The notes below the pieces were generated by a model. That model had not been told where the DNA came from and ran no database searches. It saw nothing but the letters and a program-made list of their open reading frames with translations. A stretch of 64,000 bases of DNA from Pseudovirgaria hyperparasitica. Its lineage: Eukaryota. This document shows positions 22,412 through 62,199 of this stretch, in pieces. How positions within the stretch are numbered: position 1 is the stretch's first letter; every line of letters starts with the position of its first letter. The stretch lies in assembly GCA_010093815.1 (NCBI GenBank), contig ML996573.1, one strand, 5' to 3'. The translations under genes were made by a program, and so were the position numbers.

Positions 22412-24108
22412 TGCGATGGGCTGCCTTTTACAGAAATACGAACCAAGCGGAAGATTTGTATCTCTATGTGGTTCGTAACAACTTCTCAAGGCTGGCCGTA
22501 AGTATCTGGATGATAAATACTCCGTGGTTGTCCGAGAATCCCGCCGGCAACAGATTGTGAACCTTTCTCGCCATTCGAACAGACTGACGCATAGAAATGC
22601 AAGTTATTAATAGAGTCACTTATTTGAACTGTCATTATCAGCTGTACCATAGATGATCGTACTTCTAGCACCCCAAGACGGTCCATTTCTGTTCCTTTAC
22701 CGCCCGGCTAGATCTGTTACCAATCGCATTGAACCGCCGACAGGTAAGCGCTGAGAGCTTTACAACGAGCCCAAGCGTTACGATTTGGAAGAGCATTTAC
22801 CAATAAAAGCAGTACGAACGTTTCTATGGGAAAATGCACATCTCGGCACGGCGAAATCGATAGGTTGTGATGTCGTCTAGGCGAAACATAACAGCCACGA
22901 TGCGCCGGGTAGCCTTGTGCCTCCCGAAGTCGACTGCAGAAAGATAGAAAGTTACAGGGCCATTACTCTGGTAGTGACGTGTATAAAGTATCGAGTTAAT
23001 GCTACTAATCTACATATTCATATATCAGACATATTCAAAGGATCGATCTAGCATTACTCTAAGTCTCTTAGCTAGGCTCTATTATAGATCTAACGGAGCC
23101 GAGAAAGAACGTTAGGTACTATATACTCTTTACCTAGTCTATATTTAAGCTCTAGGTTAAACTATAATAGATACTATAAGACCTATACTAGTTAGAAATT
23201 TAGCTTATTAACTAATAAGCTTATAAGTACTATCTACTAAATAATATTTAGTATAGCTATATAGTTAGTAATAATAATTATTAGTTAGTCTAAACTATTA
23301 ACTATATAGTATATTTAATATATAGTCTATATAACTACTACTACTTCTAGCTCTATTAGCTAGTAATATAACTTAGCTAAAGAGAGTTCTTTACTAAGGT
23401 ATAGAATAGACTTAATATCTAATTATCTAATCTTTATAATATAATCTACTTCTTCTTTAATATAATAAGTAAAGACTCTAAAGCTATACTTTAATATATT
23501 AATATCTATATAAAGCTATTATTTTAGATTATAATAGATAAGCTTAGTTTTATCTATAAAGATAGTCTAAATACCCTTCTATAATACTAGTAGCTAGTCT
23601 ATTTAAGTAATCTTTATTTATTTATAGTATACTATATATATATAGTCTACTAAAGGTACTTTCTTAAGAAGATATATTTTCTCTATCTATAGATTCTAGA
23701 TAAGTTAAATATAATATAGTATATATTACTATAACTAACTAGTTAGTCTAAGGTAGTACTTAAGCTTATTAAGTATATTAGAATACTAGAGATTATATAT
23801 AGCTACTAATTTCTTAGCTATAGTAGAGAGTCTATAAGTATTAACCTTTTAGCTAAGAAGAATAATAGATAGATATTCTAAGTAATACTTTTTATCTTTA
23901 AGTATTAGGTTTCTTATCTATAGAGTAGAGAATATCTACTAAAGATAGTTAAGATACTTATTAAGTTTCTTACTAAATATAGAAATATTATTAATATATA
24001 CTATAGTAAACGCCTTATATCTAGCTTTATATAAGATCTTATTAATCTATCTCTATATATATAATAGAGAGTTATAGAAATCTATTAGAATAATATTTAA
24101 CTACTTCT

Positions 24109-24336
24109 TATTAGAACTTAGTCTTAGGTATAACCCGATCCGTATATACCTTAGCTAACCTAGTTAGAAGATAGCGTGAAGGGTAGTAAATAGTTATATA
24201 TTAGATAGATTAGTATCCCTTTATATATATACTCTTAGATTTCTACTAATAGAGTTTAGTAGTAATTTATTCTATAATAGAATATACTCTATTATTCTAT
24301 TTAACTATATTACTATCTAATAACCCTATTCTTATA
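24109..24336 (+). repeat. 5' LTR of element B (228 bp)
   Basis: tattagaact...cttata (RIP of TG..CA), direct repeat of 31321-31548. Confidence 0.92.
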
Positions 24337-27300
24337 TTTAAATTACTCTCTATATAGTACTATAGTTAAGATAGTCTAACTAGAACTAAGAAGGTTAATA
24401 TAATCTACTATAGAGATAAGTAATACTATATTAAATAATAGAGATTCTCTATAATTAGTATTAATTCTAGCTATTCCTAACTAAGAAGTAGAGATATTAG
24501 ACTAAATTATAGAGCTTTCTAATAAAGAAATAGTAGATATACTAAGTAACTTCTAATAATAAGAAGCTAGATAATAAGTTATAGCGGAGCTATATAAGAT
24601 ATTATAATAAACTATTACTAAACTATAGAAGTATATTACTAATTAAGTCTAAGAGATCTAGATTCTTAAAGAATAGACTAAATATATAAAACTCCTTATA
24701 AAGAGATAAGAACTTAAAAAGTCTCTTAATAAACTACGCTAAATAATAGTAGATAAATAACTTTCTATACTAATTTAGGTAGAATTAGTTTACCTACTAC
24801 TAGAGTTATAATAATCTACTATACTCCTAGCTACTTTATTACTAATTTATTCTACTTCTTCTCTAGATATACTAAAATCTAAAGATCTAACTATATTTAT
24901 AGAGAAGAACTAAAAGAAGTAGAAAGACTAGAAGAGAGACTATAAAAAGTACTTCCTTAATAACTCTCTACTCTTTTCTACTAAAGTATAATATATTTTA
25001 TTTAGAGAATAATATCTAGACTTATAATTCTATAATTAATAGAATAGATAGAAGGAAGTATAGCTATTATCTATAATAACCTAGAAATATTTAGCTATAT
25101 TTATACTAAATACCCTTAGAATAGATAGAGAATATAAAAGAAAGATACTATCTAAGTTAAGAAGTATAGTATAATAACTAAACTAGATATCTACTTAACT
25201 ACTATAATACCTTTAAAACCTATAGAATAATATCTCTATACTATAGAAAAATATTTATATATTCTAGTTTTATAAAGTACTACTTCTATTAATCTATAAA
25301 AGACTAGAAATAGTATTATTAAGTTTTAACTATCTATATAAATTAGAGAAGAAAGCTAATAAATACTACTATATTCTTAAGAAATATAGCTCTCTAGATA
25401 AAACCAACAAACCCTATATAGATTAGAAATAAGATTAATTAAATATATTTAATTAAGAGTAATCTTACTATAATTAGTACTAGAAGAGTATAAATTAGAG
25501 TAGAAATATATTAAGAAGATACTAAAATAATTAAGGTAGTACTTCTTAATATAGAAAAGAATAAAATATAGACTTAAATATAATATCTATTATAAAATAG
25601 TAGAATTATAGTATACTTTATTACTATAAGTATAGAGAAATAGAATATATTTTATCTAACTATAAGAATCTAAAAAAAGAATAGACTAATATATAAGATC
25701 TAACTATATTCTTAGCTAAATTATATATAATTAGAAGAAGCTATAGTATCTTCTAGTAAGTAAAGACCTAATATTACTAAAAGTATTATTATCTATAGTA
25801 AATAGTAATAAAACTATATAGGCCCTTATAGATACTAGTATAGAAGATAATTATAATATTTTATTAATTCTTATAAAGGAGTATAGATTATTATATAATC
25901 CTAGTAAAGTTAGCTAAACTATTATAGTTAATAGATATAAAGTTAGAACTTTAGATAAAGCTATAATAAATTATAAAGTTTATAACTTAAAGATAATAAA
26001 ATAGTAGATATCTAATAAATTTATTATAGCTAATATTAGGTAATAGAATATGATTCTAGAGATACCTTAGCTTAAATATCTAAACTCTATTCTTAATTTT
26101 TAGAAGAAGATATTAATATTCTATTAATATTATAATAAATTATACTAGTAAGTTATAACTATTAGTAAGAAGATATAGAACCTTACTATATAGACTTAAT
26201 TATTACTAATCTATCTTATATCTCTATTAATTATTAATAAAGATAAGAATAATAGTAATAATTAGAGCAAAGACACGCTATCTAATATATATTTATAGTA
26301 TATAGATATATTTTTAGTAGAAGATATATTACTTCTCTCTAATTATAGACTATATAAGCTAAAGATTAAGCTTAAAGAGAGAGTAGACATCTCTTATAGT
26401 CTACTTCATCTACTTATAAGACTAGAACTTAAAGTTCTTTATAAATATATTAAAGAATACCTTAGAAGAGACTAGATATATTATAGTATATTATTAGCTA
26501 GTATATCTATTCTCTTTATAAAGAAGAAAGATAGAAGTTTATATCTATATATTAACTATTAGATACTAAATATAGTAACTAAGAAGAATTATTATCTATT
26601 ACTACTAGTTAGTAAATCTTTAGACTAATTAATAAAGATAAAGTACTTTATAAAGCTAAATTTATAAGATATATATTACTAGCTTTAAATTTATTATAGA
26701 GATAAGTAGAAAACTATATTTCAGACTAGATATAGTTATTTTAAGTATACTATTATACTATTTAGACTAATAAATATACTAGAAGTATTTTAAGAATATA
26801 ATAATACTATACTTATAGAATTACTTAATATAATTTATATAGTTTATCTTAATAATATACTAATTTACTCTAATAGTATATAAAATTATAAAGAATATAT
26901 AAAATTAGTACTAAATTATCTAAGATAGTATAAACTCTATATAAAATTATCTAAATATAAGTTTTACTAATAAGAAGTTAGATTTCTTAGCTTTATTATA
27001 ATATATAGCGGTCTAAAAATAGAGCTAGAGTATATAAAGACTATTATAGAATAGCTAGAATCTACTACTATATATTAAATTAGAATATTTATAGGTTTTA
27101 TAAACTATTATTATAAATTTATTATAGACTTCTTATAAATTATAGTACTACTTAATAAACTTATAGAGAATAGTAGTAAAATCTCTATAGATAGGCGAGT
27201 ATAGTATAAAGCTAAGTTAGTTAAGATATAGTTAATACTAGAAGTATAAGATATATTCTAATTATTAAAGAATTACTTTATAACTATACTAATTCTTAGG

Positions 27301-29474
27301 TATTTTAATTCTAAGAAGTATATTTAGGTTAAAACTAATATATTAGAATTTATAATTACTAGAATTATTAGTTAACTATATAAGGATATAAAAGATAAGG
27401 TATAATAGTATCTAGTTACCTTCTTTTTCTATAAAATAGTAGATATAGAAACGTATTATAATATATATAACTAGAAACTACTTATAATTATTAAGAGTTT
27501 TAAGTAATAGTAATATTATTTAGAAGGTTCTATATATTAGATTAAATTATTATTAGATTATATAAATCTATATTACTTTCTATTAACTAAGGTCCTTAAT
27601 TACTAATAAGTATATTAGGCTAAGTAGATATTAATATTTAATTTTAAAATCTTATATAAAGCTAGAAGAGAGAATAAAGCTAATCCTCTATTACGGCGTA
27701 AAGATTATAAGAAATTATTATAGAATAATATAGATAGTTAGTATAATTTAGACTATACTATACTATAGATACTATAAGACTAGTTATCTAATAGAATACT
27801 AGAAGCTAGAATACTTTTAGCGATTCTCCGTAGGAATTAGAGTAGATATTAAGTAATCTAAATAAATATCTAAGAAACTAAGAAAACTCTTAAAGACTTA
27901 ATTAAATCTATCTAGAATTCTAATATATTAGTAAAGAAAGTTATAAGTATAAAAGAAAGTGCTATAGATCTACTATAGTTATTAAGATAGAAATAATAAT
28001 TAGATATAATCTACTTCTAAGACTAACTCTATATACTAGAAGACGGCTTATAAATTAATATTTTAAGGAAATAGTATAATTATATATTAGTAGAATACTT
28101 TAGTATTATAAGAATAGTTAATTTAATCTAAAGAATATATAACTAGCTAGGTCTTTATAAATATATAAAGAACTATATAAAAATATATAACGTCTACTAG
28201 TATATAAAAGTATATAGATACTTACTATATAGTAAATTAAGACTATTATCTATACTAAAGAAGATATAGAAGGAATTATTAATAGATTTTATTATAGATC
28301 TACCCCTAAGTAAGTATTTTAGATATATTTATAATAGTTTACTTATAGTTCTAGATAGATTTATAAAGATATTATACTATATCTCTATAAGAAAGATAAT
28401 CTAAGTACTAGATCTTATAGATATACTACTCTATAATATAGTTTAGCTCTATAGTATACTAAATAGTATAGTTTTAGATAGAGATCTATAGATAATATCT
28501 AAATTTTAGAAGAATTTCTACTATATACTAGGAATTAAGTAGAAACTTAGTACTATATTCTATCTATAAATAGATAGATAGATAGAACGATAGAATTAGA
28601 TAGTTAAGGTATATTTATATATATATTATAACTATAAGTAGAGTAACTAGATAAGGTTAGTCTATATTATAGAATTTATATATAATAATAGCTAATATAT
28701 ATTAACCTACATAAGTCCGTTTAAAGTAAACTTTAGCTAGAACTATAATATATAGTTCTTAGAAACTTAGTTTAAAGTAGAATAACCTAATATTAAAGTA
28801 ATAGAAATTACTATAGAACTATTCTAAATATAAAGAAGTATTATAAAGTTACTATAAGATACTATAGATTATAGTAAATTATACTATAATAAGGGTAGAA
28901 AACCTATAATCTTTAATATTAGAGATAAAGTTTTACTAAATAATAAGAATATTTATAGTATTAGACTAAAGAAGAAGCTTAAGTATATAATAATAGATCT
29001 ATATAAGATTACTTATATAATTAATAACTAGACATACGAGTTAAAACTCCCTCCTATATTAAAGATATATAATATATTCTATATTATACTTCTTAAGCTA
29101 TTTTATATCTTATTATTACTAGATTATTCTAAATAGATACTATATAAAGTAGTTATATAAGAAGGTATAGATATCTATAAAGTTAAATAGATACTTAGCT
29201 AATAACGCGCTAAAGATAGTATATAGCTATATAAAATTTATTAGAAAGGATATAATTCTAATAAAGATACTTAGAAACCTATAATAAATATTAGTAAAGT
29301 AGTAATATTAGTATATAAGGAGCGATTAGTAAAGGAAGCCGTAGAATTATAGAGAATTATACTAAAGTATAGTAATTTAACGTTTTTTAGTATAGTTTAG
29401 TACTAAGAATAGCTATCTAAAAGGAAGAAGGTAAAAGAAATATAGATCTTTAAAATATTCTAAGGAATTAAGAA

Positions 29475-29552
29475 AACTTCCTTAGAAAGTTTAAACTTAG
29501 AACTCCCTTAGAAAGTTTAAACTTAGAACTCCCTTAGAAAGTTTAAACTTAG
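29475..29552 (+). repeat. 26-bp tandem repeat x3 downstream of pol in element B
   Basis: aactcccttagaaagtttaaacttag x3 (first copy has one mismatch). Confidence 0.9.
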
Positions 29553-29879
29553 AACTTTAAAATTTAACTAAAAAATAGACTTAGAAAAAATAATTTACTA
29601 AGAGAAATAGATATTAAAAATTAGTACTAATTAGTATAGATTAGTATAGATTACTAAAGAAATTAAAGAAGTTATTATTAAAGAAAGATAAAATTAAGAA
29701 AACTAGAAGAAAATATAAAGATCTATATAGATCTATATAAACCTATACTAATCTATCTAGAAGAAGTAAGATTACTTTAAAATTAAAACTAAAAACTAAA
29801 AATACTAGATAAAAGAAATATATTAGTACTAATTAGTATAGATCTAAACTAATTAAGATAGAGTAGAAGTAGAAGTACT

Positions 29880-31100
29880 AATTACTATAATAATTATATC
29901 TAATTTCTTCTACTAGTTCTTATTTAGTATAGTATAGAGCTTTATAATATAAGTCTCTAGCCTTTTATTCTAATACTATAAACCCTATATAACGCGTCTT
30001 ATAGCTATAAACTCCTCTATAGAAATCTATAAAGTAGTAGAAACTAGGGTAGAGAGAGATAGACTAGTATAGATATACTAAGAATTATATAAATTAGTAA
30101 AAAGATTTAATAATTAGTATAGAACTATATATCTTTAGTATAGAAACTTCTAGATTAGAGCTATCTTCTCTAAATTTATAGCTCTTAGATATATATAAGA
30201 AAGAAACCTTAGCCTTTTTACTAGAATCTTTTCTAGGAATTTTAATATTACTAGTATATAGAAAGAAGTCTAAAGTAGTAGAGATTTTAGTACTATTATA
30301 GAGATTAATATATATTAGTAAGAATCTATAATAATTTAAGAAAAATAATATTACCTAGTAATCGCGGTAATAATAGCTATAGTAGATTCCGCTAAATCTT
30401 TATAGATTATATTAGAATTATACTTCTAGATATACTTCTTACTATATTTATATAAATTATAGAAAGCCTTTTCTAAGGTATTATAATTAGTAGTATTATA
30501 CTTCTTATTAGTAGGGGTTACTAGAGGTCTAGTAGTAATCTATACTAATATAAGTAAATCTATATAAAGTCCTTTAAACTTATTTAAATACCTATAAATA
30601 ATAATACTTCTTAGTTATATAAGTACTATATATTATAGATTTAGTACTACTATAAGTAAGGTATAATAGAAAGTAATAACTATAATAATATATAGCTAGA
30701 TTATTAGAGTCTAATCTAGATTAGAGTAGATTAATAGCTTTTAATATATTAGTAATATATACTAGATAAGAATTATTTAAAGGCGTTTATTTCTATACTA
30801 ATTACTTCTAAGTATTAAGATTCTAAGAAACTATATTATAATTATTATTAGTTTATATAGATTTTAGTAAATTATTATTACTATTAGCTATATATACTAT
30901 AAAAATTAGTAAACTATATAAAATTATAGTAAATTATAGTAAATCTATATAAATCTATATCTATAAGAATTAGATAATATATCTAATAATCTAAAAAACT
31001 CTATAATAAGTTATAAAGTTTTTTAAGAAAAGGAATATTTCTAAGAAAAGATTTTAATATAGATAGTACCTAGACTTACCTAATTATATTACGTAATATA
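29880..31100 (-). pseudogene. Antisense multi-exon accessory gene inside Gypsy B (Cys-rich motif plus C-terminal coiled-coil-like segment)
   Basis: Three phase-preserving minus-strand introns (30540-30591, 30293-30354, 30078-30132) and another acceptor at 30897; outer boundaries approximate. Confidence 0.7.
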
Positions 31101-31320
31101 CTAGGCCTAATTAGATAATTCCACCTATATAAGAATTAAGAATAGATAAAATCTAGTTTACTAGAAAAACACTTATATAAGTCTTAGATTAGTAAGTATC
31201 TATATATATCTAAGATAAAGTATAGAGAACGACTAAGGTCTTATAAGACTTAGAATAGAAATATAGAGATAGATAATAATCTAGATTACTAAGAGTAGCT
31301 TTCTAAAGAAAGGGGATAAT

Positions 31321-31548
31321 TATTAGAACTTAGCCTTAAATATAATCTAATCTATATATATCTTAGCTAACCTAGTTAGAAGGTAGCGTAAAGGGTAGTA
31401 AATAGTTATATACTAGATAGATTAGCGTCCCTTTATATATATACTCTTAGATTTCTATTAATAGAGTTTAGTAGTAATTTATTCTATAATAGAATATACT
31501 CTATTATTCTATCTAACTATACTACTATCTAATAACTCTATTCTTATA
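31321..31548 (+). repeat. 3' LTR of element B (228 bp)
   Basis: Follows PPT, followed by TSD cttct. Confidence 0.92.
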
Positions 31549-32640
31549 CTTCTAGTCTTAGTATAATATAAATATTAATTTATAATAGTCTTTCTTAGTA
31601 ACTAGCTACTAGTAGAAGAAGCTAGCTATATTAATAATAGATATAAACTTCTTTCTAGCTATATATTAGATAATATTACCCTAAAGTAATAATAGATAGA
31701 AGTCCTTAATACTAATTTTATTTAGGTTTCTTATATCTCTAATTATCTAACTAGTATTCTTATATAATATTTAGATAAGTAACTTTACTATAGAGTATAT
31801 AATAAATATTAGAAAACTAAATAGTATTAACTATATTAGATATTCTATATACCCTTATATATAGAGCTTATTATATATCTTATTAATAATAGTCTTACTA
31901 CTTACCCCTAATAGATAGATATAGTAGCTTAGCTTTATACTAGTTATTTTCTAGTTACTTACTAGAGAAATATATATCTAGTTTTTCTCTAGAATATTTA
32001 TAAGTCTAGTATTATAAAATAAGCTAGTATAACTTTAGATAATATTATTAAACTTCTAGATAGTTACTTTATCTTTAGTATAAATTTTTATACTAAATAT
32101 ATCTATCTATTAAATCTTATTAAGCTAAGTAAGCTTTATAGATAATCCCTCTATATTATCTAAAGAAACTACTTTAGTCTAAAATATATAGAGAGTATCT
32201 ATTTTATCTATTAATATACTAAGTCTTATATTTTTATTTATATACTAATCTAAATCTATAGTTTATAATAAATATATATACTATATTTTAGTTAGTAAGA
32301 TATATATAGATACCTCTATCTTAACTAAGCCTTATACTTATATATATTAGAATAAATATATAATCTTCTATAGTAAACTTATACTAGTAATAGATTATAA
32401 TTAGAACTAGTATAAGTATTTATAGATAGAGAATAGTATACTATAAAATAGTTACTCTCTAGTATACTACTAGTTAAATAATAGTAGTAAAGGTTAGTAT
32501 AGTAATTCTACTATATATACTAATAGTTATTATATATATACTTATATAGATATCTATCTTCTAAGATACTATAATATCTATTCTAAGAAGGAGATCTCCT
32601 TATAGATAGTTAAGAATATATATCTTATATATTACTTTTA

Positions 32641-35600
32641 AAAAAAAACTTCTTATACTCTAAGGGACCAAAACTAGTTAATTTAGAGTAATATAGTAAT
32701 CTATAGATATTAATTAATAGAGTATACTAAGTATAATAACTTCTAATATATATATATATAATATATATATAATAGTACTAATATATAGAGATACTATATA
32801 TATATACTTAAAAACTCTTTAGAGTAGTAAGTATAGACTAATACTAATAAATACCAATATACTAACCTTTCTTTTTATTAGTTAAGGGTAGCCCTTAACT
32901 AATAATTATAGCGGCCTTAGATACTAATATACCCTAGCTTCCGCTAGATATATCTCTACTACTAGTATAATAGAAATAGCTATATAATAGTATATTCTAG
33001 AATAACTAAACTACTATCTAGAAAATAAAAAATAACTAAAGATATAAAATACTATAGATAACTAAGATAGAGAGAACTCCGCTAGGGGATACCCTTATAG
33101 ATAAGATTAAATACTAGATAGTATATATAGAAAGAGAGGTTAAGAAGAGAGAGACTACCCTTCTTAATATCTTCTAGAGCCTAGTCTAGAATATTTAAGA
33201 ACTTACTATAGAAGTAAAGTAGATACTAGAGTTAAACCTAGAGTCTAGACTAGACTAGATTAAGACTAGTCTATTAAAGATCTAGATAGATCTTATCTAG
33301 GAAAAATACTCTAGTATATAGATATAGATTACTATACTAATAGATAGTATAACTAGAATAGCTTAAATACTAAGAATATCTAAGAGAGAAGTATATAATA
33401 TATAAGTTACTATCTAGAAGAAGAAAGTACTTATATAATAATAATAATAATAATATTATATAACTAGGTAGAGTAGTACTCTATGCCTAGGCCTATGCCT
33501 CCTCTAGTCTAAGCTACTATATAAGAAGAAACCTAAGAGGGAAAAACTTCCTTATGTCTATAACTACATCTCGTTAAACCTCTGTTTCGTCTTAAGTATA
33601 TAGCTATAGGGTACACCTATTAGCCTATAGCCTATATTACCGTTATTTTACCCTTAGGTAGCACGTGTAGATACGGAGGTTATTAGTTAAGGGGTTCTTC
33701 CGGCATATACCGGGTTTCCTCTAATATATACCGGGTTTCTTCCGGTATATATTTCCGGGTCTACTAGAATTAGAGGAGTAGTAGGTATATAATTATCTAC
33801 CGGGCGACGTCCTTAGGGTACTTATTAAGCTATCGTACGATATCGGAGGTTCTTATCGTATAGATAAGCTTCTACCTTTACGTGTAAAGATCGGGGCATA
33901 TTACGAGATAGTAGCGTATTATATCTCTCCGGCCGTACGCCTTATACCATAGAGATATATTAGGGACGCCTCTCTTATAGAGGTAGTATAGAAGTTCTAT
34001 AGCGCCCGTTTAGGCTTAGAGGAGTATAGATGCCTAGGCCTTTATAAGCCCTTTATATATCCATTTACTTAGCTCCTTCTATGGTCCTTAGATCTACTCT
34101 AGATACCTATTCTACTAGGAGGCCTACTAGGCCCGGAGTGTCTCTTTCTACTTATCTTAGATCCATAACCGTATACTTCGTCCAAGCTCTCGAAGGCTCT
34201 ATTAGTCTAGAAGGGTATCTAGGTTATTCTTAATCTCTTATACTACTTAGTTTAAGTCTATTTCTATCGGGTACTTATACCGTAGTCGAGTCCGGCCTAT
34301 ATATAAGAGTACTTAATAGTATACGCTAACTCACGCGCGTAGCGCGGCGAAGGTATATTCTACATTTTCTATACGTTCCTATGCTTATTATTTAGTAAAG
34401 TATACCACCCTCTATATCTAGTAGAAGTTCTATATACTTATTATATTTATCTCGCGTCGTAGTAGCGCTATAGTAGTAGCTTTATATACACTAGAGATAA
34501 GACGGAGTATGCGGTTTTATATGGATTCGAGCTTCGTTTGCCTAGCCTATGTAAGGGCCGTATACTAGTACTCGTGTCCGTATATAAAGACTAGTCGTAC
34601 TATAGAGCCTCTAGTTCGAAGTCGGATGACTCCTATAGGTTTAACGTGCCCTATACTATTAGACCCTACTCCTGTTTTCGCCTTATCTTATCCCCTTTAG
34701 GCTTATACCTCTAGCTCTACTAGAAGAGGGGTATAACGCCTTATCTAGCTAGGAAACTACGAGGTTTACTCCTTAAACTTATATTACTAGCGTACGTACC
34801 TAGCGACACGTTCTATCTCTTTATAAATCGATACACGCATCCGTTCTCTCGGGCTATATAGTAGTCTCCCTAGCTAGGACGTAATCCCGCCTACTTCTAG
34901 ATATACTAAAGGTTAGAGCCTATTAAAGGGGTAAGGTCCTTAGAGCTAGTAGTTACTACTATATACCACGCCCCACCTTTAAGTATAGCTACTATCTAGT
35001 TTCGTGTTACCTATAAGGATCTCTCTATAATAGACCGACCGTGTCTTATAGGCGAGTATCCTTTGAATTCTATACGTGTATACTCGCGTGACGCGCCTAG
35101 GTAACTTAAGTATTCTCTACCTACTAACCCGACTTATTTCTACTACTTTTTAATGGGTCCCTATAGCCGTCTCTTATCTATATCCGTATACTATTATCTA
35201 TATATACTAGCGCTCTACCTCCTATAGTAGACTATAACATCTCTCGTACGCGGGAGCTACTCTATCTATTCTAGACCTAAGCGGTATCCTATATTAAGCG
35301 AAAGGTCTTAATAGAGTCGCGCTACTAGTGGTCGCGCTAGGCGTCTTAATAAACGTAGTTTAATACTATAGAAGAGTTAGCCTTAATAAGTTCATCCGTA
35401 GTAGTTTATAGTTACCCTTAACGTGATTTCTCGCTAATCCTTATATATCTAGAGCCATTTAAGCCTCGAGGTGTTCTATTACGCTACTAGGACTTCCGCT
35501 TTCTCTACCTATATGGTAAGGTAGATTCAGGCCTGCTTTTAATATAGTAGTAGCGCGTTAGATGGTTTTCTTATCCCGGTATTCTCGTGGACTCCTCTTA

Positions 35601-38450
35601 ACGCGTTAATTAAGAATAGGATAGAAGTATATACTATTCTAGCTGGTTTATTACGGTGTGGTCCCTATAGAGTGATACGTCGCGAAAACTCTATAACTAC
35701 CTACCTAGCGACGACGAGGTTACCATTAACGCCGCTCTAAACCTCTTACTACCTCCGAAGAGGCATTGCCTAGCTATAATAACGTGGACGCGGTTCGTAA
35801 GACTTCGTAGCCGAAAGTACTTATATAAGTCTAGTAGATATCTCTAAAGAATATTATTAATAAAATTAATAAATAGAAAGAAATATAGTTAAATATAGTT
35901 ATAGCTAAACTTACCCTAGAAGGTATAGTACTAATAACTATTACTAATATAGTCTAGTAGACTATCTTCTATAATCTAAATATAATAAATAATATCTTCT
36001 CTAGTATATCTATCTATATAAATATATATCTAATATAGATATATACTATCTCTATCTAGAGCTATATTATTAGAAATAATAATATTAAGTAAATAGAGAG
36101 ATCTAATAATTAGAAATACCCTAGAATTAAGATTATAAAGATATAATAGAAAAATATATAGAGAATTAAAGTAAAATTAAAAAAGTACTCTACTATAATA
36201 GTAGAGCTTAGAAACTCTACTCTTATCTATAGAATTATATAAGAAGACTTTATAGCTAAAGAAGAACTACTTATAATAGAACTATAGAACTAGATATAGA
36301 TAATAATCTAATACTTTAACTATTAGAGATATAGATATACTAGATAGAAGTACTCTTAAAAGACTATATATAGCTAGTATTATTAGAGCTATAGTACCTA
36401 GAAATACTCTTATAGAATCTAGAGTAATAGTATATATAATAGAGATACTACTAAGTACTCTAACTATAATAGGAAATACCTATTCTAGTTAGTAATATAT
36501 ATAAAATATAAATAAGTTACTAAGTATATTAACGCTATAAAGGTAAGAGGAGTAAGATAGATATACTAGACTATAAGGCCTCTACTATCTACTCTAACTC
36601 TATCTATAACTATACTAACTAATCTATAAGGGAGTAAGAATAATATATAATAGTATACTATATAGAGAAAGATAGATTAACTCTAGGGTATCCTTAAGAT
36701 AGCTATAGTATAGAGATAGTTACGCCTTAACGCTACTAGTATATAGACTTAAGTATTTCTTAGTATCTAATAAAGAGCTAAGATATACTTATTATTATAT
36801 AGATAAATATATAATATAAATAAGAAAACTAGGCTACGCTTCTTAAGAAGATAGATACTATAATAATAGCTATCTAGAAGCTATATAAATACTACTAAAC
36901 TAATAAATAAATAATATACCTAGGGTACTATACTATCTACTCTCTAAGCCTAGATAGAAGAGTTCTATTCTATATATATAAATTAATCCCACTCTCTAAG
37001 TAGTTCTATATAGAATAAGATAACCTCTAAATAGTACTATATCTCTAGATAAATATAGAATCTCTTTATATCTATAATATCTATAACTAGAGAGAATTAC
37101 TTATACTAGATACTATACTAGAGAGTATTATAGTACTAGAATAATATATTCTTTTAGACGACTTTAACCTCTACTATAGATAGTAGAAAGACCTAATAGT
37201 TATTAGAGAAGAGCTTAGAGTAAGAGAACTATATATAAGATACTATAACCTTCTATACCTCCTTATACTAGTTAGATAAATTATATAAAGAAAATATAAA
37301 TAGAATAAGAAGAGATCTATACTTAACCTTACCCTCGCTATAGAATATATAAGCTATAGAGTATAATACTACTATCTAAGTAAGATATAGATAGACTCTA
37401 ACTATAAGTATATAGAGACTATAATAGATATATCTATATCTAATAAATAATAGAGGAGATAGCTCTAGAAAGATACTAACTAGAAGAAATATAGAGAGAA
37501 TCTAGAATTAATAATTCTAGATCTCTCTATAGTTAATATATCTAATAGTCTAGCTATAGATAGAGCTATATAAGTTCTTCTTTAAGCCTTCTAAGACTTA
37601 AGAGATAAATATTTACTATACTAAATATATAAGTCTCTAGATATAAGGAGTATATCTTAAATATATAAAAGTAGATAGAAAGTTTAGAGACTATATATAT
37701 ATATATATACTATATCTAGATAACTAAGGTATAGAAGAAATAGAAAGAGATAATCTAATCTTATAATAGAACTCTCTATAATAAATAATATAAATACTAG
37801 TATAAGATTACTAATAAATGTATATAATAGACTATAGAGCTATAGTATATAGTAAAGTAGACTAAGAGCGTAGATATACTAACGCTACTACTACTAATAC
37901 CTCCTCTAATATACTAGAAAAGAATATATACTATAAATCTAGAAAAGGTAGAGATTCTCTATAAAGTTATATTTCTCTCTCTAGAGCTAGTAGATCTATC
38001 TAATATTAATAATACTATATATCTAGACGCGGTTAATATCTCTATAGAGATTATAGAAGAGGATATACTTAGAGTTATTAAAATACTCCCGAATAATAAA
38101 GCGTCTAGACTAGATAGAATACTAAATAGATACCTTAAATATACTATATAGATAACTCTACTACTTATTAGTCTTATCTTCTAGATATATACTAAGAATA
38201 GATACTATCTCTAAAGTTTCTAGACTATCTATACTATTATACTTCTAAAGCTAGAGAAGAATTCTAACTCTCTAAAAGGATAGAGACTAATTACTCTTCT
38301 CTTCTATCTAGATAAGATACTTAAGACTATAATCGCGAAGAAGATAAGTATTATAGTATAGAAATATAATCTTCTTCTAGTAAACTAGAAGGTAAAGACT
38401 AGAAGCTCTCTAATTACTACTATTTAATATATTCTTAAAGTTATCTATAT
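32641..38450 (+). mobile_element. Older, heavily RIPed Tad-like LINE 'C', split by an insertion (33438-35812) and cut off at ~38450 within RT
   Basis: Colinear with LINE 43311-48600: 5' aaaacttctta, palindrome 32875-32905, ORF1, endonuclease (LLDDFNL ~37150), RT N-terminal part. Confidence 0.85.
33438..35812 (-). mobile_element. Chimeric non-autonomous retroposon copy 1: 1207-bp module (34606-35812) + ~1.17-kb LINE 3' end with (TAT)n tail
   Basis: 15-bp TSD gaaagtacttatata (33423-33437, 35813-35827); module near-identical to 60954-62160. Confidence 0.88.
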
Positions 38451-38464
38451 TAGGAAAGATACGG

Positions 38465-38880
38465 CGCTTCTAGTACTTCTAGGTCTTCCGGTACTTCTAA
38501 AGTTATCCTAAATGGGTCCCGGTACTTCTAGAGTTATTCTATTCCTTCCGGAGTTGTCCCGGTACTTCTTAAGTTATTCTAGTCCTTCTAGAGTTATTCT
38601 AGTTCTCCTAGAGCTATTCTAGTTCTTCTAGAATTATTCTATTAAATATTAAGAAAATGTTTAATTCTATTATATACTAGTGCATATCGGAATATCCTAT
38701 TATATACCGGTATATATAGTAACGTTCTACTATATACCGGTATATAATAGCGATACTACTTTATATTATAACTATATTTTAAGTATCTAGGAATATCCTA
38801 TAATATACCGGCGTATATTAGAATATCCTATTATATACTAGTATATATAGTAATATTCTACTATATACCGGCATAGAATA
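38465..38880. repeat. Two degenerate tandem arrays at the left edge of unit D
   Basis: ccggtacttc..gagttattct-type units 38465-38640; ctattatataccggtatata..-type ~30-bp units 38665-38880. Confidence 0.75.
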
Positions 38881-38949: not shown

Positions 38950-41900
38950 TATACTACTATACTATCTAGTCTCTTAGAAGCTACTTAACTAACTACCTTA
39001 CTTACTTCTATATCTCTATAGGATTACTAAAGTATACGCCTAATACTAGTATATCGGGTATAGTTATTACTACTATAGATATATCTCCTTTTTCTAGATC
39101 TAAGACTTATTTCCTTATACTTTCGATTATCTAGTCTAATATAGTAAATCTACTCTTAACCCCTAAATAGTCTAAAACTAAAGTATATATATATACTATA
39201 GGCTAATATTATCTATAGTAATAATATCTTATACTTATTTACGGCCACGTCTTTTTACATAGATATTAGTCTACTAATATAATATAACCGGTAACTATTA
39301 GGTCTTATCCCTTATAGACTTACGAAGCTAAGGCTAGTAAAATATATAGAGAATCTAACTTATTTAATCTAAAATCTTTATATACCTTATTTATACTAGA
39401 CGTACTTAGGCCGGCCGGTAAATATACTAATATTTTTAATTTTACGTATAAATATAGTACCTATATATATATTAGTAAATTATATTACTAGTAAGTACTA
39501 ATATAAATACTTACTATATATAGGAATATTACGGTTACTAGTATAGTAGATATAATTATAATTTTCTCTAGTTAGTTAGCGAATATTTAACGCACGTGTT
39601 TAGTATTTTTATTATAAACCTTTTTATTAATAAGCTTATAGAGCTAGTTTACCTTCGAAGCGACTCCTTTTAAAGCTAGTAAGATTATATTCTTTTATAT
39701 ACTATTATCTAGCTAGAGGAGTAATTCGCGTATAGAATTAACGTTTACTCTATCTAGTATACTATTATTATCTATTAACGGACGTATAAGTCTAATTTTA
39801 ATATATTCCTTACTTATCCTTTTATTAGTAAGGTATATAAGTAGTATATATATAGTAGCTAGCCTAGCCTTATAGTAGTACGTGTTATATCTAAGCCCGT
39901 TTAATTTACCCTAGGCGATAGCTTATTTAAGGAGCCTTCGGCCTTTATCCTTGTATAACTATATAATCTACTTCTCTATATCTATAGCGGCGATATATAT
40001 AATATCTACTACTAGGGTTACTATTATAGATAGATAGTTCTTTCTATTAAACTACTTACTTAGTTATCTCCTTTATAGAATAAATAGTAAATATTAATTA
40101 GCTACTATATATAGTATATACTTACTATCCGTAGTTTCTAATACTATACTAACTATACTAGCTATTATCTCTACCGGCTTATTTTTTATTTAAGAGAGGA
40201 GTTTATTTAACTACGTTATAACTATCTTTCTTATAGATCCCTTCTATATACTCTTAAATACTAATTTAGTAGTATTATTATTAACGTAGTTAAGTAACTA
40301 ATCTAGAATATCTATTTTAATAGCTAATAGAATATCTAATAGACTATTCGAGAGGGGCGTTATACTAATCTATATACTAAATATAAAGGGATTAAGTCGT
40401 GTATATCTATACTATTTTATTATAGGTTTTTTTAAGGTATGGAACTTATCTACTATAAATATACCGATAAATACTATGTTATAGGTTTAAATAATATTAG
40501 CGCTAAATTTTTTCGTCTTCTTCTCTTTTAGAACTACGCGTCTAGTAAAGTTTATAATATATTAGATCTCTATACTTTAGATAGTAGTATAGACTATATT
40601 ATTCTTTGTATATTATAATAGAAATTTAATAGTAGCGGTCTTATTAACGTAAATTAACTACTCCTTAGTAATATACTCCTTACTAGTCTTATATTTTATA
40701 GAATTACTAATATTATTATAATATTTCTATTTAGGGTTAGAGTACCTCTTAGCTAGATAGTATATGTCTATAGATAAGAGTTATTAGATATTAGAGGCGT
40801 TAAGAAGGGTTTTCGAGTATACTAACCGTACTACTATCTTTATCGGGTTCTATTTATTAATTTTATTAGTAAACATACTATCTATATTATAGTATATCTA
40901 GTTAAAGCGCTATAGCTAATATAATACTAGAAGGTTCCTTAGATAGTATAGTATAAATAGTCCTTAGAGGCGGGGTATCTTACTAAATTTATTAGTCTAG
41001 CTACACGGATATTTAATCGGATATAGAGATTATATTAGGTACTTTCTATCTATACCTAGGTCTTAAGTTAGTAGTAGGTGCTTTTCTAGATATAGTTCTA
41101 TATTATTATATAGAAAGTTCTAATAGAATATAAGGTAGATAAACGTTATAAGCACGATAGTCTTCCCTAGCCCTAGACTATCTACTAAGATCTAGTAGTT
41201 CTACGGACCTACCTACTACTTAAATATAGTAACTACTATAAGTAATTAGCCGGTCTATAGTCTATATAATCTACTTATACTAAAGACTAGATATAGAATA
41301 GGTATATAGCTAAAGTCCTTTATTAGATTATCTAGTATAAGCCTAAATATACTTATAGTAAGTAACTATATCTCTTCTATATAATAAGAGATAGCTTAGA
41401 TTACTTTATTAGAGTTATTAACGGCGAATACTCTATAGATATATTAGTATAGTAGTATATATTTCTACTCGCTACTTAGTATAACTTACGCTTCCTAAAG
41501 TTTTATACTAAGGTTATTATCTACTAGAAGATTATTATCCGTATCTAGTTTTACTTTATCTTTATTAGACTTATTATCTAGGGGATAGATAATAAAGGTA
41601 ATATTATCTATTAATATATTATCTAATATATCTAATATATTTCTACTATATAAATCGTCTATTAACCCGATTAGATTCTAGTACTTAAGTATCTACCGGT
41701 TAATATCTAGTAGTATACTATATTCTAGTTTTAAGCGTTTAGAAGAATCTATAGGGTTTACTATATTATTCGAGAGTATCCTCTTTATTACTAGTAACTA
41801 TAGATAAGCTTTACTAGTATCTAGAGGTATAATAGTATCCGTTATATAATTATCTAAGTTAGTAATTATAGCTATATCTATCTTTAATACTACTCTAATG

Positions 41901-42650
41901 TTAGTATCTAGTACTAAGTATATATATATATCTAAGTATACTTATTATGTTATCTTCTATTTTAGTATCTTCTATAACTACTTTCTCTTTATATTCTAAC
42001 GGTAACTATAACTATATATCTATAGCTAGTATATTTACGCGTATATAAGCTTCGCTAGATACGATAGTACTTATAGAGGGATTATCTAAGTTAGCGAGTA
42101 TAGCCGCATCTATCTTTAATACTACTCTAATATTAGTATCTAGTACTAAGTATATATATATGTCTAAGTATACTTATTACGTCGTCTTCTATTTTAGTAT
42201 CTTCTATATTCTCTTTCTCTTTATATTCTAATAGCGACTATAACTATATATCTATAGCTAGTATATCTATATCTAGTTTAGCCTCCGTTATATCTATAGC
42301 TATAACTATTAGTATTAACTTACTATCTATAGCCGCGATATACTAATTAAATTCTTTAGTAATAGTTTCCTCGACTATTCTAATAAGTATAGTAGTATCT
42401 ATACTACTATTTTTAAGCTCTTATAATACTTTTCCGCGTACTATCTTAATAATAGTATCTCTATATATACTATAACTTATTTTAGATAGTTAGTATAGGC
42501 CTTAGAGATACTAGATATATAGTAGAAAGGCGCTAACGCTTAAGGCCTCTATACGTCGTATATATATATTATAGTTAGCTATTCTATAGCTAGTAGTTAA
42601 GCTAGAACGGTCGTAACTCTTACTATACTTATATATTTCTATATATAACT
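38950..42650 (-). pseudogene. RIP-inactivated SNF2-family (SF2) helicase/ATPase
   Basis: Motif I ILVDSLGLGKT (41159-41192), II FIVDKFH (de-RIP DEFH, ~40440-40460), III SITPLSN (~40345-40366), IV IFAN (~39580), VI de-RIP QERIHRIG (~39135-39160) in correct order; ends approximate. Confidence 0.8.
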
Positions 42651-43310
42651 TAGGTTATAGGTAATAAGACGGAGTTAGTAGCGATAAGAGTTAAAAACTA
42701 TATTTAGGCGGTAGAGGTTAAGTTACCGCGTTTACTAATTATAATATAATTTCGTAAAGTACGGAGGAAGTAAAGTATATAAGTAAATATTTAATTATTA
42801 GTATAGATCTTATACGAATATAATCATAGTAATAATATAGCTAGTAGAACCGGGCGTATACTAATATAAAATAGGTAGACGCTAGCTTATACTAGTATAT
42901 TAATGTCTTAATTAAATATACGTACTACGGTTATATAGCTAGTAGAATCGGGTATATACTAATATACTATAGGTAGAACCCGTCTTATATTAGTATTATA
43001 TTACCTTAGCTAAACACGCGTACTACTCTTACTACCCCTAGTATCCTTTTTATTATTCTATTACTCTTTATAATTAAGATCTATATCCTCTATATCTAAG
43101 ATACTTCTAAGGCTTTTAAAGTTACTATCTTTAGAGTTTATAGATTAGTCTTATAGCTTTCTAGGTACTAATAGTAGTATATATAGTATTACTAGAGGAA
43201 GGGTTAAGTCGTTTAGGTAATACTATCTACTATCTATAATACTATCTCTATAGGTATCTCTACTATTATAGGCGGTAGCTTTCTATTACTATTATTATAC
43301 TAGTTATAGT

Positions 43311-46300
43311 AAAACTTCTTACACCCTAACGGACTAAACTAGTTAATTTGGGGTAAAACAGCGATTTACATACATCAAACAATAGAGTATACTAAGTATA
43401 ACAACCTCCGACACACGTGCGTACGTATAGTATATAATACGCGATAATACTAATGTATAGAGATACTATATATATACGCTCGAAGACTCTTCGATAACAC
43501 GAGTATAGACTATATCTAATAAACGCCGACACGCCGACCCCCTTTTATTAGTTAAGGGCTACCCTTAACTAATAACCATGGCGGCCTTAGGTATTGTAAT
43601 ACCCCGGTAGACGCCGGATATACCCCTACTAGTATAGTAGAAACGGCTATATAGCGATATTAATATAGATAGCTAGACACCTATCTAAAATATAGGAACT
43701 AACTAAGGGTGCGAAGCGCTATAGATAATCTAGACTAAGAGGACCCTAAGAGGGGAGACCCTCCTAGATAAAATTAAATACTAGGTAATACGTGTAGAGA
43801 GGGACGCCGAGAAGAGAAAGAAGACCCTTCTTTATATATTCTAGGACCTTATCCGGAACCTAAGAGGAATTATAGAGGAAGAAAGGAAGTCGCTACGAGA
43901 GGAACCTAGTAGTAGACTTAACCGAATAGAAGCTAGCCTACGGAGAATCTAGAAAGAGCTATCCTAAGGTAAGCGCCCTAACACGTAGGCTTAGATTATA
44001 GTAACACCTAGAGCCACCGTACTAAGGACTACTAGAACTATAGATAGAGTATATAGTATACATGTCGTAATCTAGAATAAGAACACGCTAGCGTAGATCT
44101 AATAGATATCTCTAAAGGAAATTATAAATAAGATTAACGAATAGAAAGGAATGTAGTTAAGCGTCGTAGCTACTAAAGTTACGCTAGGTAGGGTAGTACT
44201 TACTACTATAACGAATACTACGTAGTAAAACATCTCGCGAGATTCGAATATAATAGATAGTATCTTCCCCGGCGCGTCTATTAGAGTAGCTATATACCCG
44301 ATTATAGTATATATAGTACCTATACGGGGATAGGCTATCGGAGCGGAGGATATTACGTGTATAGAATAATCTAACACGCGAAAATACCTAGAGATTAAGA
44401 TCGTAAAAGCGTGGTAGAAGAACCTATAGGCGATTAAGACGACGGCGAAAAAACACTCTACTATAATTATAGAGCTCTAAGACCCCGCCCTCGTATAATA
44501 TATTATATAGAAGGGATTCCTAGTAGAAGGAGAGCTCCTTATAGCCGAGCCATGGGATAGGGTATAGGTAATAATATAGTGCTTTAACTATTAAGGGTAT
44601 AGATATACTATATAAAGGTACTTATAGAAGACTAAGTGCGGATAGTGCCGTAGGGACCACGCTACCTAGGAGTGCCCTTATAAACCGTGAGGAGACGGAC
44701 TAAGAAACAGGGATATAGTATAGTATTTAAACTACGACGGGAAATACCCGTCGTGGTCGTTAACGTATATAAAATATAAATAGATCATAGAATATATTCG
44801 TACGATAAAAGCGAGAGGCGTAAGATAGTTATAGAATATAACATCTACCACGGGCCCTTCCTTTATAATACCCCTAACCTCCTCTCTAGAAGATAGTTAG
44901 ATAGGATAGTAGACTATCCCGAAGACGATAGGACGACTAAAAGGTATAGTTAAAGCCGCTGCCGCGCGAGGATAGTCGCGCCTCCAAGGAATAAGTATAT
45001 AGATATATATACTCTCTAGTACCTAATAAGGGACTAGAATATACTCTAAATTATATAGATAAATATATAATATAAAAGAGAGAACTAGGCGACGCTTCTT
45101 AAAGAGACCGGGGCCATAATACTCGCCATCTAGGAACCCTATAAATACTACTAGACGAGTAAACTAACCACACACCCCGGATACCATACTATATACCCTC
45201 TAGGACTAGAAAGACGAGTCCTCTTCTATATTCATAGGTTAATACTACTCTTATTATAGTCGTATACCGAGCGCGATAACCTTAGGATAATACTATACCT
45301 ATAAATAGATATAGGCCCCCTATATATATATAACATATATAACTAATAATATATACTTATACTAGACGAGATACTTAAGGGTACCACGGAACTAGGGTAA
45401 TATATCCTCCTAGAAGACTTTAACCTCTACTACTAATAGTAGGGAGGCCTAGCCATAGTAAGGGAAGAACTTAGAGTAAGGGAACTACGCACCCGCTACC
45501 ACGACTTTCTATACCTACTTATACCTATAGAATAAGTTATATAGAAAAAATATAAATAGGACGAAGACGGGTCTATACTTAACCTTACCTTCGCCACGGA
45601 GTATATTAGTTACCGGATCTAATACTACCGCCTAAGCTAGGTATAGACGGATTCCAACTATAAATATATAGAAACCGTAATAAATATATATACCCCGAAT
45701 AAATAACGGGGACAATAGATATAGAAGGATACTAACTAGAAAAAGTACCTAAAGGACCTAGAATCGGCGATCCTAGATCCCTCTATAGTTAATATATCTA
45801 ATAATCTAGCCATAGACTAGGCCGTATAGATACTCCTATAAATATACTAGAATACGAGAAATAAACACGTACTATACTAAATATACCGGCCCCCGGAAGT
45901 AAAGGGGATTCCTTAAGTATAGGAAAGTAGATAAGACGCCCAAAGGCTATATATACGCGTATACCGTACGAGAATACCCGAGTCGTAGAAAGAATAGAAG
46001 GAAGTAATATAATAACGCGATAAAGTCCTCCGTAACGAAAGGCGTAAATAGTAGTATATAATTACTAGTTAATAGACATGATACGTAATAGGGCTATGGT
46101 ATATAGCGAAATAGGCCAAGGGCGTAGACACTCCGACACCCCCGCTACTTATACCTCCCCTAATATATTAGGGGAGAATATACTCTACGAGCCTTAAGAA
46201 AACTAAGGCCCTACGGGAGGCTATATTCCCTCTCCCGGAACTAGTAGACCTATTAGATATTCACGGCGCTAAATATCTATATACGGTAGATATCCCTAAA

Positions 46301-48572
46301 GAAGTTACGGAGGAGGATATACTTAATATTATTAAGATACTCCTAAATAATAAAGTACCCGGACTAGATAGAATTCTAAATCGATGCCTAAAAAGTACTA
46401 TAAAAGTGACCCTACCGCTTATTACTTATATATTCTAAGTATACGTCACGTAGGGGTACCACCCCTAGAGCTTCTAAGTCGCCTATACTATTATACTCCC
46501 GAAACTAGGAAAGAGCCCTAACTCCCTAAAGGGATAGAGACTAATCGCCCTTCTCTTCTACCTAGGTAAGATACTAGAGGCTATGGTAGCGAAGAAGATG
46601 AGTACCGCGGTATAGAAATATAATCTCCTCCCTCCGAACTAGAAGGTAAAGGTAGATAGCTCTCTAATAATAGCTATCTAATATATTATTAAAGTCGTCT
46701 AGGCCGTATGGAAATAGGAACGGGTAGTATCGCTTCTCTCCCTCGATATAGCCGGAGCGTTTAATAAGGTAAACTATATAAGACTTATTTATAACCTCCG
46801 GATAAGACGAATACTAGAATGGATTATACGCTTTATATAGTTATTCCTTATAGGAAGAATAACTTAGATATATATCCCTAGGTACTAGAGCGAATATAAA
46901 GAGACGGTATATAGCATCCTATAAGGGAGCACTATCTCTCTAATTCTATTCCTCTTCTTTACGGTAGACCTTCTTTAAGGAATAAAGTATATAGAGGTAG
47001 TTAGATACGCCGATAATATATACCTTCTAGCTATTAATAATAATACTAACCGAACGTATAGACGACTAGAATAGGACTACGAGAGGTGCCTCTAGTAGGT
47101 AAAACGCCATAGAGTAAAGTTCGCCCTAGAGAAATACTAGCTTATGTACTTTATTAACCGTTAAGGGAAATAGATAACTAGGGAAGATAAATAACGCCCC
47201 TAAATCAACGTATTTAACGAACTACTAGTATAAAGTATACGCGCGCTCGGAGTTATACTAGATAGTAAGCTTAAATAGGGACTATAAGTAGTATACGCCG
47301 TCTCTAGGGCCCTCCGGGTAGAAGCCGCTATATAATAGATTATAGCCTCTATATAGGGAACCGCCCGGGATAAGGTACGCTAGCTATATATATCTATAGT
47401 ACGACCCGCCTTCACGTACGGACACGAGTGCTAGTATATAGCCCTTATATAGACTAGGCGAATAAAGCTCGAATCCATATAGAACCGTATACTCCGTCTT
47501 ATATTAGGCGTATATAAAGCTACTAATACGGTACTACTACGACGCGAGATAGACGTTATAAGTATATATAACTTCTACTAGATATAGAGGGTAGTATACT
47601 TTACTAAATAATAAGTATAGGAACGTATAGAAAACGTAGAATATACTTTCGCCACGCTACGTGTATAAATTAGTATATATTACCGCGTACTCCTATATAT
47701 AGACCGGAATTAAATACGGTATAGATGCTTAATAGAAGCTAACTCTAGCTAAGTAGTATAAGAAGTCCGAGATAACCCGGACGCTCTTCTAGACTAGTAG
47801 AGCCTTTAAGAACTTATAAAAAATATACGGTCGTGGACTTAAGATAAGTAGAAAGAGGCACTCTATGCCCACTAGACCTCCTAGTAGAATAGGTACCTAG
47901 AGTAGATTTAAGGGCCATAGAAGGAACTAAGTAAATAGATATATAAAGGGCTAATAAAAGTCTAAGTATCTATACTTATCTAAGCCCGAACGGGCGCTAT
48001 AGAACTTCTATACTATATCTATAAGAGAGGCGTTCCTAATACCTCCCTATAGTATAAGGCACACAGCCAGAGAGGTATAATACACCACTATCTAGCTATA
48101 TACCCTAACCTCTATATATAACAGTAATAGCTTATCTACATTATAAAGACTTTAGATATCGTATAATAGCTTAATAAGTACCCTAAGAATATCTCCTAAT
48201 AGATACTTATATATCTACTACTCCTCTAGTACTAGTAGACCCGGAAATATATACCGGAAGAGACCCGGTATACGCCGGTAGTAACCTAATATATACCGGA
48301 AGAACCCTAGGAGAACCCCGATTATTAGTTAAGGGCAGCCCTTAACTAATAACCTCCGCATCTACACGTGCTACCTAAGGGCGAAATAATAGTAATATAG
48401 ACTATAGGCTAATAGGCGTACCCTATAGCTATATACTTAAGACGAAACAGAGGTTTAACGAGATATAGTTATAGATATAAGGAAGTTTTTCCCTATAGGG
48501 TTTCTTCTTATATAGTGGCTTAGACTAGAGGAGGCATAGGCCTATAGAGTACTACTCTACCTAGTTATATAA

Positions 48573-62160: not shown

Positions 62161-62199
62161 GTAGTATTTATATATAGTTATAATTAATATAGAATAAAG

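Follow-up and report, generated by a model that had tools for sequence, protein, structure and literature searches.

LINE-tailed chimeric insertions with a constant 5' module in Pseudovirgaria hyperparasitica, a second fungal case of MINE-type chimeras

The original description of MINE elements is reportedly that of Fudal et al. 2005. MINE are the WEIRD-MGL chimeric retroelements of Magnaporthe grisea/oryzae, in which WEIRD, a 5' part of 1113 nt with demonstrated expression, is joined to the long interspersed nuclear element (LINE) MGL (PMC2104539). They are multi-copy, carry 10-20-bp target-site duplications (TSDs), are joined at several chimerization sites that lie behind GCC*A/T in the LINE, and no solo copy of the 5' part has so far come to light; the authors found no microhomology at the joints (PMC2104539). 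A template-switch model was proposed for MINE and for the mammalian U6/L1-type chimeras, and the nature of WEIRD and the reason why it is the favoured jump target were left open (PMC2104539). LINE-made chimeras in general were assigned five features: a full-length copy of a cellular RNA as the 5' part, a 5'-truncated LINE as the 3' part, varying sites of joining, direct joining in the same orientation, and flanking direct repeats (PMC2104539). Here we analyze a 64,000-nt stretch of contig ML996573.1 (GCA_010093815.1) from Pseudovirgaria hyperparasitica, referred to below as the window, which contains two insertions (copy 1 and copy 2) built from a constant 5' module of ~1.2 kb and the 3' end of a resident LINE. 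They are a second fungal case of MINE-type chimeras, the mechanism itself having been described already, and the literature searched contains only one other host, Magnaporthe, in which the same long non-coding 5' partner recurs from chimera to chimera. We regard the insertions as probably LINE-made chimeric retrocopies, for which the reverse transcriptase would have switched repeatedly from the LINE RNA to a second, discrete RNA of ~1.2 kb, entering it at its 3' end.

Anatomy of the insertions and comparison with described chimeras

Self-BLAST of the window was used to partition both copies into module and tail. The initial annotation had placed the two insertions at 33438-35812 and 60384-62160, and both were confirmed there on the minus strand, with lengths of 2375 bp (copy 1) and 1777 bp (copy 2). 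The parts of the two copies and the LINEs of the window are as follows.

33423-33437, left TSD of copy 1, GAAAGTACTTATATA, an exact 15-bp match to 35813-35827
33438-34606, minus strand, LINE part of copy 1, 1169 bp of the 3' end of a diverged LINE subfamily, 81.4% identity to LINE_A 47393-48593
34607-35812, minus strand, 5' module of copy 1, ~1206 bp, 93% identity to 60956-62160 with transitions only
35813-35827, right TSD of copy 1, an exact repeat of 33423-33437
60370-60383, left TSD of copy 2, GTAGTATTTATATA, an exact 14-bp match to 62161-62174
60384-60955, minus strand, LINE part of copy 2, 572 bp of LINE 3' end plus (TTA)n, 92.5% identity to LINE_A 48019-48593
60956-62160, minus strand, 5' module of copy 2, ~1205 bp, the same module as at 34607-35812
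62161-62174, right TSD of copy 2, an exact repeat of 60370-60383
43311-48596, plus strand, LINE_A, a full-length 5286-bp non-LTR (lacking long terminal repeats) retrotransposon with its own TSD TATACTAGTTATAG and a (TTA)n tail
51440-56725, minus strand, LINE_B, another full-length copy in the orientation opposite to that of LINE_A, with a (TTA)n tail and a separate TSD of 15 bp, GTATATAGAAATATA
32645-38447, plus strand, an older LINE copy with 69-72% identity to LINE_A, which hosts copy 1 at 33437/35813

The TSDs enclose each composite as one unit. The repeat of copy 1 is exact over 15 bp, or 16 bp if an ambiguous next A is counted, and that of copy 2 is exact over 14 bp; both copies end in (TTA)n, which occupies 33438-~33467 in copy 1, so the earlier proposal of a separate TSD and tail for each copy holds. 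On the element strand, both chimeras end in ...CCTAGTTATATAATA(TTA)n, exactly as both full-length LINEs do. At the opposite end, the start common to both modules is GGCT(A/G)CGAAG, i.e. GGCT(A/G)CGAAGTCTTACGAACC..., and the module of copy 1 begins with GGCTACGAAG and ends with ...CGAACTAGAGGC(T); at both window junctions the 3' end of the module is ...AGAGGC(T). The shared module with identical termini described in the initial annotation is thus present, with a length of ~1205-1206 bp instead of the 1207 bp given there, and the LINE lengths of ~1.17 and ~0.57 kb are borne out by the 1169 and 572 bp measured.

At the junction of copy 1, read on the element strand, ...CGAACTAGAGGC is followed directly by TCTATAGTACGAC, and the LINE resumes at ~47393 of LINE_A. 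At that of copy 2, ...CGAACTAGAGG is followed by CTATAAGAGAGG, and the LINE resumes at ~48019 of LINE_A. There is no filler, and one nucleotide (copy 1) or two nucleotides (copy 2) fit both partners. Module and LINE parts have the same orientation, which agrees with the reverse transcriptase frame and the tail of the LINE. Both LINE breakpoints are preceded by TATAT and start with CTATA, LINE_A/B reading ...TATATA*TCTATAG and ...CTATAT*CTATAAG there; this context may be a preferred site, or may reflect the mere monotony of DNA altered by repeat-induced point mutation (RIP). Splicing was considered as a source of the junctions and rejected, as AG is missing before both LINE breakpoints and no GT follows the end of the module.

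The LINE family that donated the tails is itself represented in the window. LINE_A and LINE_B align ungapped over 5286 bp with 92.7% identity (385 differences), and both retain a Pfam match to RVT_1 when stops are read as X (cut-off 29.6 bits), LINE_A with 43.7 bits (E=3.4e-11, ~46526-47249) and LINE_B with 29.6 bits. LINE_A is heavily RIP-mutated and is of the same type as the donor of the copy 2 tail. Matches to TRIM_CC and NitrOD1 on the LINE frames reached 12.5-14.8 bits against cut-offs of 25-30 and were dismissed as chance. The 5' end AAAACTTCTTA... is common to all three LINE copies of the window, including the one with 69-72% identity. In the older LINE, 32645-33177 matches LINE_A 43311-43844 and 35830-38447 matches LINE_A 44098-46701, and window BLAST found no 3' part past 38447. 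All four tailed elements of the window (two chimeras and two full-length LINEs) share the same 3'-terminal sequence followed by (TTA)n, have TSDs of 14-18 bp, and have element-strand TSDs that begin with T(T)ATA adjoining the tail (33423-33437, 60370-60383, 43293-43310, 56726-56740). These common targets fit a single endonuclease/priming system that serves LINEs and chimeras alike, and suggest that the tail pairs with a TA-rich nick site to prime synthesis.

Several further observations concern these LINEs. Copy 1 lies within the older LINE as a nested insertion. LINE_A and LINE_B, which have separate TSDs, form an inverted pair flanking a 2.8-kb spacer. Of the 165 and 174 stop codons in their respective reverse transcriptase frames, 153 are shared. 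The shared RIP-type stops could result either from independent RIP saturation of the same sites or from mobilisation in trans of already mutated copies. In the 3' untranslated region of the LINE (33690-33760, 60640-60740) there are short repeated CCGG-containing units, and a 33-bp indel separates the two subfamilies.

Compared with the five features of LINE-made chimeras, the insertions have a truncated LINE 3' part, differing sites, direct joining in the same orientation, and flanking repeats, i.e. four of the five. For the full-length RNA at the 5' side, the module is a candidate, its 5' and 3' ends being constant in the window copies and in further contigs (see below). The architectural likeness to MINE and to U6/L1 chimeras that had been pointed out initially is real (PMC2104539). 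Like MINE, the insertions consist of a non-coding 5' part of ~1.1-1.2 kb with constant ends, fused directly and in the same orientation to a variably 5'-truncated resident LINE; they also share with MINE the short TSDs, the multiple copies, the several sites, the lack so far of any solo 5' part, and a filamentous ascomycete host. Unlike MINE, the copies here lie in large RIP-mutated AT-rich blocks and have ~30-48 stop codons per reading frame, and the module is ~1206 nt long, compared with 1113 nt for WEIRD. The LINE here is 5286 bp long and has a (TTA)n tail, and the junctions differ from those of MINE, as 1-3 nt fit both partners and no GCC*A/T is visible. The mammalian U6 small nuclear RNA/L1 chimeras, as far as the cited paper outlines them, have a full-length copy of a cellular RNA as 5' part, joined directly and in the same orientation to a 5'-truncated LINE between TSDs, and are explained by template switching in the course of target-primed reverse transcription (PMC2104539). 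In contrast to these, the 5' partner here is ~1.2 kb long and corresponds to no known small nuclear RNA and no Rfam family, and the tail is a (TTA)n microsatellite instead of poly(A).

Tails of two LINE subfamilies behind one module

To compare the histories of the two parts, we counted transitions, transversions and indels separately for module and tail. The two modules differ by 84 transitions of RIP type, with 0 transversions and 0 indels over 1206 bp; a single transversion counted at first falls in the junction bases just past the module. In the purine/pyrimidine alphabet the modules are therefore 100% identical over 1206 bp, far beyond chance. The shared part of the tails (~540 bp), by contrast, differs by 61 transitions, 14 transversions and 3 indels (39 columns). 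This excess of transversions in the tail over the module is significant (Fisher p = 6.7e-7), and a module diverging at the rate of the tail should have gained ~32 transversions, where 0 were observed. The tail of copy 2 differs from LINE_A by 43 transitions, 0 transversions and 2 indels (8 columns), and from LINE_B by 48 transitions, 1 transversion and 2 indels (8 columns), over ~575 bp in each case, and is thus, as judged from its sequence, a member of the LINE_A/B subfamily. The tail of copy 1 has 14-16 transversions and 3 indels in ~540 bp relative to copy 2, LINE_A and LINE_B, and its upstream part has 96-104 transitions, 18 transversions and 2 indels (4 columns) relative to LINE_A/B over 624 bp, in agreement with its earlier description as a diverged subfamily.

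Since RIP produces transitions only, these counts imply that the modules were identical before RIP and that the tails came from two LINE subfamilies. A greater age of copy 1 cannot explain the divergence of its tail, because the module would then carry transversions as well. Pairwise alignment alone mimics one clean 626-bp deletion between the copies, and we asked whether all copies could descend from one junction by deletion, the outcome that the initial annotation had named as a refutation. This was rejected, based on the 0 versus 14 transversions and on further junctions at the same module end in contigs. Copy 2 thus did not arise from copy 1 by deletion, and each copy obtained its tail on its own; the claim of at least two separate fusions is upheld by tails of different subfamilies behind modules that are identical apart from transitions.

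Further copies were sought in contigs of public runs. X1 and X2 are two runs of one sample, possibly the one behind the window assembly, and contain 0.52 and 0.39 of the sampled words of the window; X3 and X4 both come from a second sample that bears this species label as well, and none of the four runs is on record as RNA. The contigs placed on 33300-35950 at ≥80% likeness numbered 4770 (X1), 2074 (X2), 22 (X3) and 16 (X4). The findings below rest on 24 of 317 loose ends and 40 of 349 variant entries and do not amount to a junction census, and summed contig depths were not used as copy numbers. A third junction, which joins 33904 to 34605, was found in one contig each of X1 and X2. It has the same module end and a tail of ~467 bp; the shorter side of the joint spans 52 letters, and 3 letters can be assigned to either partner. 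In addition, a 962-nt contig present in all four runs, and hence in both samples, contains module 34918-34607, then 194 unmatched letters, then LINE 34124-34021 and further collinear patches. This contig adds a fourth arrangement to those at this module end. Its tail would be ~880 bp long if the 194 letters are diverged LINE, but these letters may also belong to a third component other than LINE. The chimerization sites thus differ between copies, with two in the window and two more in the contigs, one of the latter via patchy alignment. The joint of copy 2 itself was absent among the joints listed.

The contigs also bear on the ends and the number of the modules. In X1 and X2, the 5' base of the module at 35811/35812 is joined to differing flanks, and X3 and X4 contigs cease matching at 35812, with unlike letters beyond, which implies that other copies share the same 5' end base. 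Among the variants listed, one at module site 35475 occurs in up to 17 distinct X1 contigs, and the module is therefore multi-copy; one copy in X1/X2 skips 122 bp inside the module (35359 to 35482). An X4 contig tracks the tail of copy 1 to 34582 and then continues as LINE, 28 of 30 letters of the continuation being, by eye, the reverse complement of LINE_A 47386-47415. The junction of copy 1 is accordingly a real break relative to the LINE. Relative to copy 1, the X3 and X4 contigs have G/C for A/T at 159 places and the reverse at 48, implying that less mutated copies exist.

The module itself resembled nothing in the searches made. No Rfam family matched either copy at E≤1, and the whole window had 0 Rfam matches at gathering score. 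Pfam returned 0 families in 12 module frames (six frames of each copy, stops read as X), and RVT_1 is still detectable in both LINE copies despite RIP of the same degree as in the module. A transition-blind search found no other match to the module in the window; the best others, of 29-43 nt, are like hits in the genic part. Two RIP-tolerant scans of metagenome contigs with IUPAC-coded patterns, one for the module interior and one for its 5' end, gave 0 matches. The module is also unlike the 5' end of the LINE, which is uniform in the three LINEs of the window. We found no support for the module being a segment from inside some longer LINE or other transposable element, the second refutation named in the initial annotation, given that these LINE 5' ends are unlike it and that several contig matches stop at 35811/35812 next to differing flanks. 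A test for an ancestral reading frame in the module through shared stops has no power, because RIP struck the same sites in both copies; the reverse transcriptase frame of the LINE, used as a control, shares its 153 stops likewise.

A proposed template-switch model and its alternatives

With the insertion signatures, the separate origins of the tails and the constant module ends as observed features, a template-switch model is the simplest explanation because of the constant 5' partner, the variable breakpoints, the two tail subfamilies, the direct joining in the same orientation and the enclosing TSDs. In this model, target-primed reverse transcription of a LINE RNA starts at a TA-rich target adjoining the (UUA)n tail, as shown by the tail, the last ~45 nt and the type of TSD, which match those of the full-length LINEs. 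The reverse transcriptase would copy a variable stretch of the LINE 3' end (1169 and 572 bp in the window copies, ~467 and ~880 bp in the contigs), stall or dissociate, and jump to a second RNA. From the anatomy we infer that the jump target would be the 3' terminus ...CUAGAGGC(U) of a separate, free ~1.2-kb RNA, which would then be copied to its 5' end GGCUACGAAG.... The product was integrated with a TSD of 14-16 bp, as seen in both copies. Fusion has recurred, as seen in the window copies and indicated for two contig junctions; the first template came from at least two LINE subfamilies, the module from one and the same source. After insertion the copies were heavily mutated by RIP, as their present sequences display. 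More tentatively, the module could be a dedicated non-coding RNA of ~1.2 kb that lacks a LINE recognition signal and lives as an obligate template-switch parasite, multiplying only when it captures LINE reverse transcriptase in mid-synthesis, either a homologue of WEIRD or an independent analogue; we hold this to be possible but short of probable.

Several points weigh against template switching as the explanation. Only two junctions are readable base by base; the third is one contig per run from a single sample at 80% likeness, and the fourth was deduced from a patchy alignment in which the 194 letters are possibly not LINE. The TATAT context before, and CTATA at, the breakpoints would also serve deletion or recombination at short repeats in RIP-simplified DNA. 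The chimerization motif of MINE, GCC*A/T, is not visible at the two window breakpoints; C-to-T changes by RIP may have hidden an older motif, and a less mutated contig still reads ...TATATATCTATGG. No LINE-free copy of the module was seen within the 64-kb window, the free ~1.2-kb source RNA is deduced from the anatomy of DNA copies, and the source of the module may itself be a transposable element or a composite master.

The latter possibility leads to the main rival, which is compatible with template switching. SVA elements are composite non-autonomous elements. Mg-SINE is a short interspersed nuclear element (SINE) with a LINE-derived tail (PMC2104539). The chimeras described here resemble both in being non-autonomous, in depending on a LINE 3' end and in having TSDs, and could correspondingly be a self-propagating composite non-autonomous retrotransposon with a promoter in the module, transcribed as whole copies, mobilised by the LINE through its tail, and with tails that are occasionally renewed or shortened when synthesis switches template between a composite RNA and a LINE RNA. 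The multi-copy state of the module in the contigs agrees with such a family, as does the LINE tail, which is what an element mobilised in trans needs; in Magnaporthe, moreover, transcripts arise from some of the MINE copies themselves, and a solo gene for WEIRD was not found (PMC2104539). In Mg-SINE and SVA, however, one fixed junction spreads as a unit, so that body and tail are inherited together, whereas here the module is constant, the junctions and LINE lengths differ, and the tails come from two subfamilies. Module and tail of a composite family should co-diverge, but 0 and 14 transversions were observed. Recombination within the homologous tail could swap the subfamily but would not shift the junction, and the four junctions at one module end would still require repeated new fusions at the 3' terminus of the module. 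We consider a composite family of this kind somewhat unlikely.

The module could also represent the 5' region of a different LINE subfamily or some other transposable element, with copies that were deleted internally and kept both ends. LINEs can exchange 5' regions, and the window has no full-length copy of the subfamily of the copy 1 tail, the 5' end of which is thus unseen. Against this, the three LINE 5' ends in the window are alike and none resembles the module, the copy 1 subfamily is only ~3% transversions away from LINE_A, and in copy 2 the module precedes a tail that is itself of the LINE_A subfamily. The same module end base would need to have been hit by four deletions, and the 12 module frames contain no Pfam signal, be it reverse transcriptase, ORF1 or another, whereas in the LINEs RVT_1 has survived RIP. 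These arguments make this origin quite improbable. Lastly, a single founder fusion followed by deletion at the DNA level, copy 2 being the copy 1 type minus 626 bp between short TATAG repeats, would account for the lone clean 626-bp gap with CTATA(G/A) at both sides, but is already contradicted, and hardly credible, given tails of different subfamilies (14 transversions and 3 indels in ~540 bp) behind modules identical but for transitions, the 0 transversions between the copy 2 tail and LINE_A, the separate TSD of each copy, and the further junction types in the contigs.

Sequence setting and significance

At ~22600, genic DNA with ~46-52% GC (over 1-17 kb) gives way abruptly to a RIP-mutated, AT-rich block, which extends to the window end and in which GC falls to only 19-21% at 24001-32000. 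The RIP indices of the module, TpA/ApT of 2.1 and (CpA+TpG)/(ApC+GpT) of 0.22, contrast with 0.75 and 1.22 in the genic part; by the usual thresholds for these indices, the entire AT-rich block is RIP-mutated. The genic part contains an 894-codon open frame at 7349-10033 on the plus strand for a protein kinase of the AGC/PDK1 type, and most of the Atlas clusters nearest to it are from Ascomycota. Two direct duplications lie in the AT-rich block upstream of LINE_A, one of 189 bp with 89% identity (41849-42037 and 42081-42269) and one of 86 bp with 84% identity (38664-38749 and 38795-38880).

As a second, independent system, the chimeras of P. hyperparasitica indicate that such 5' partners are not confined to a single LINE or species, and they provide a partner with which WEIRD can be compared in sequence, structure and end features. 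The short-overlap junctions bear on how a LINE enzyme picks its second template, and the system as a whole is of use to transposon biologists who ask what makes an RNA a favoured jump target. For annotation, recognition of the composite matters as well, since repeat libraries would otherwise split the copies into an 'unknown repeat' and a 'LINE fragment'. If the module is indeed an obligate template-switch parasite, WEIRD-like RNAs would be a recurrent class in filamentous ascomycetes and not a one-species oddity, and the constancy of its sequence, with 0 transversions in 1206 bp despite fusion to two LINE subfamilies, would suggest that its source gene is conserved and perhaps functional.

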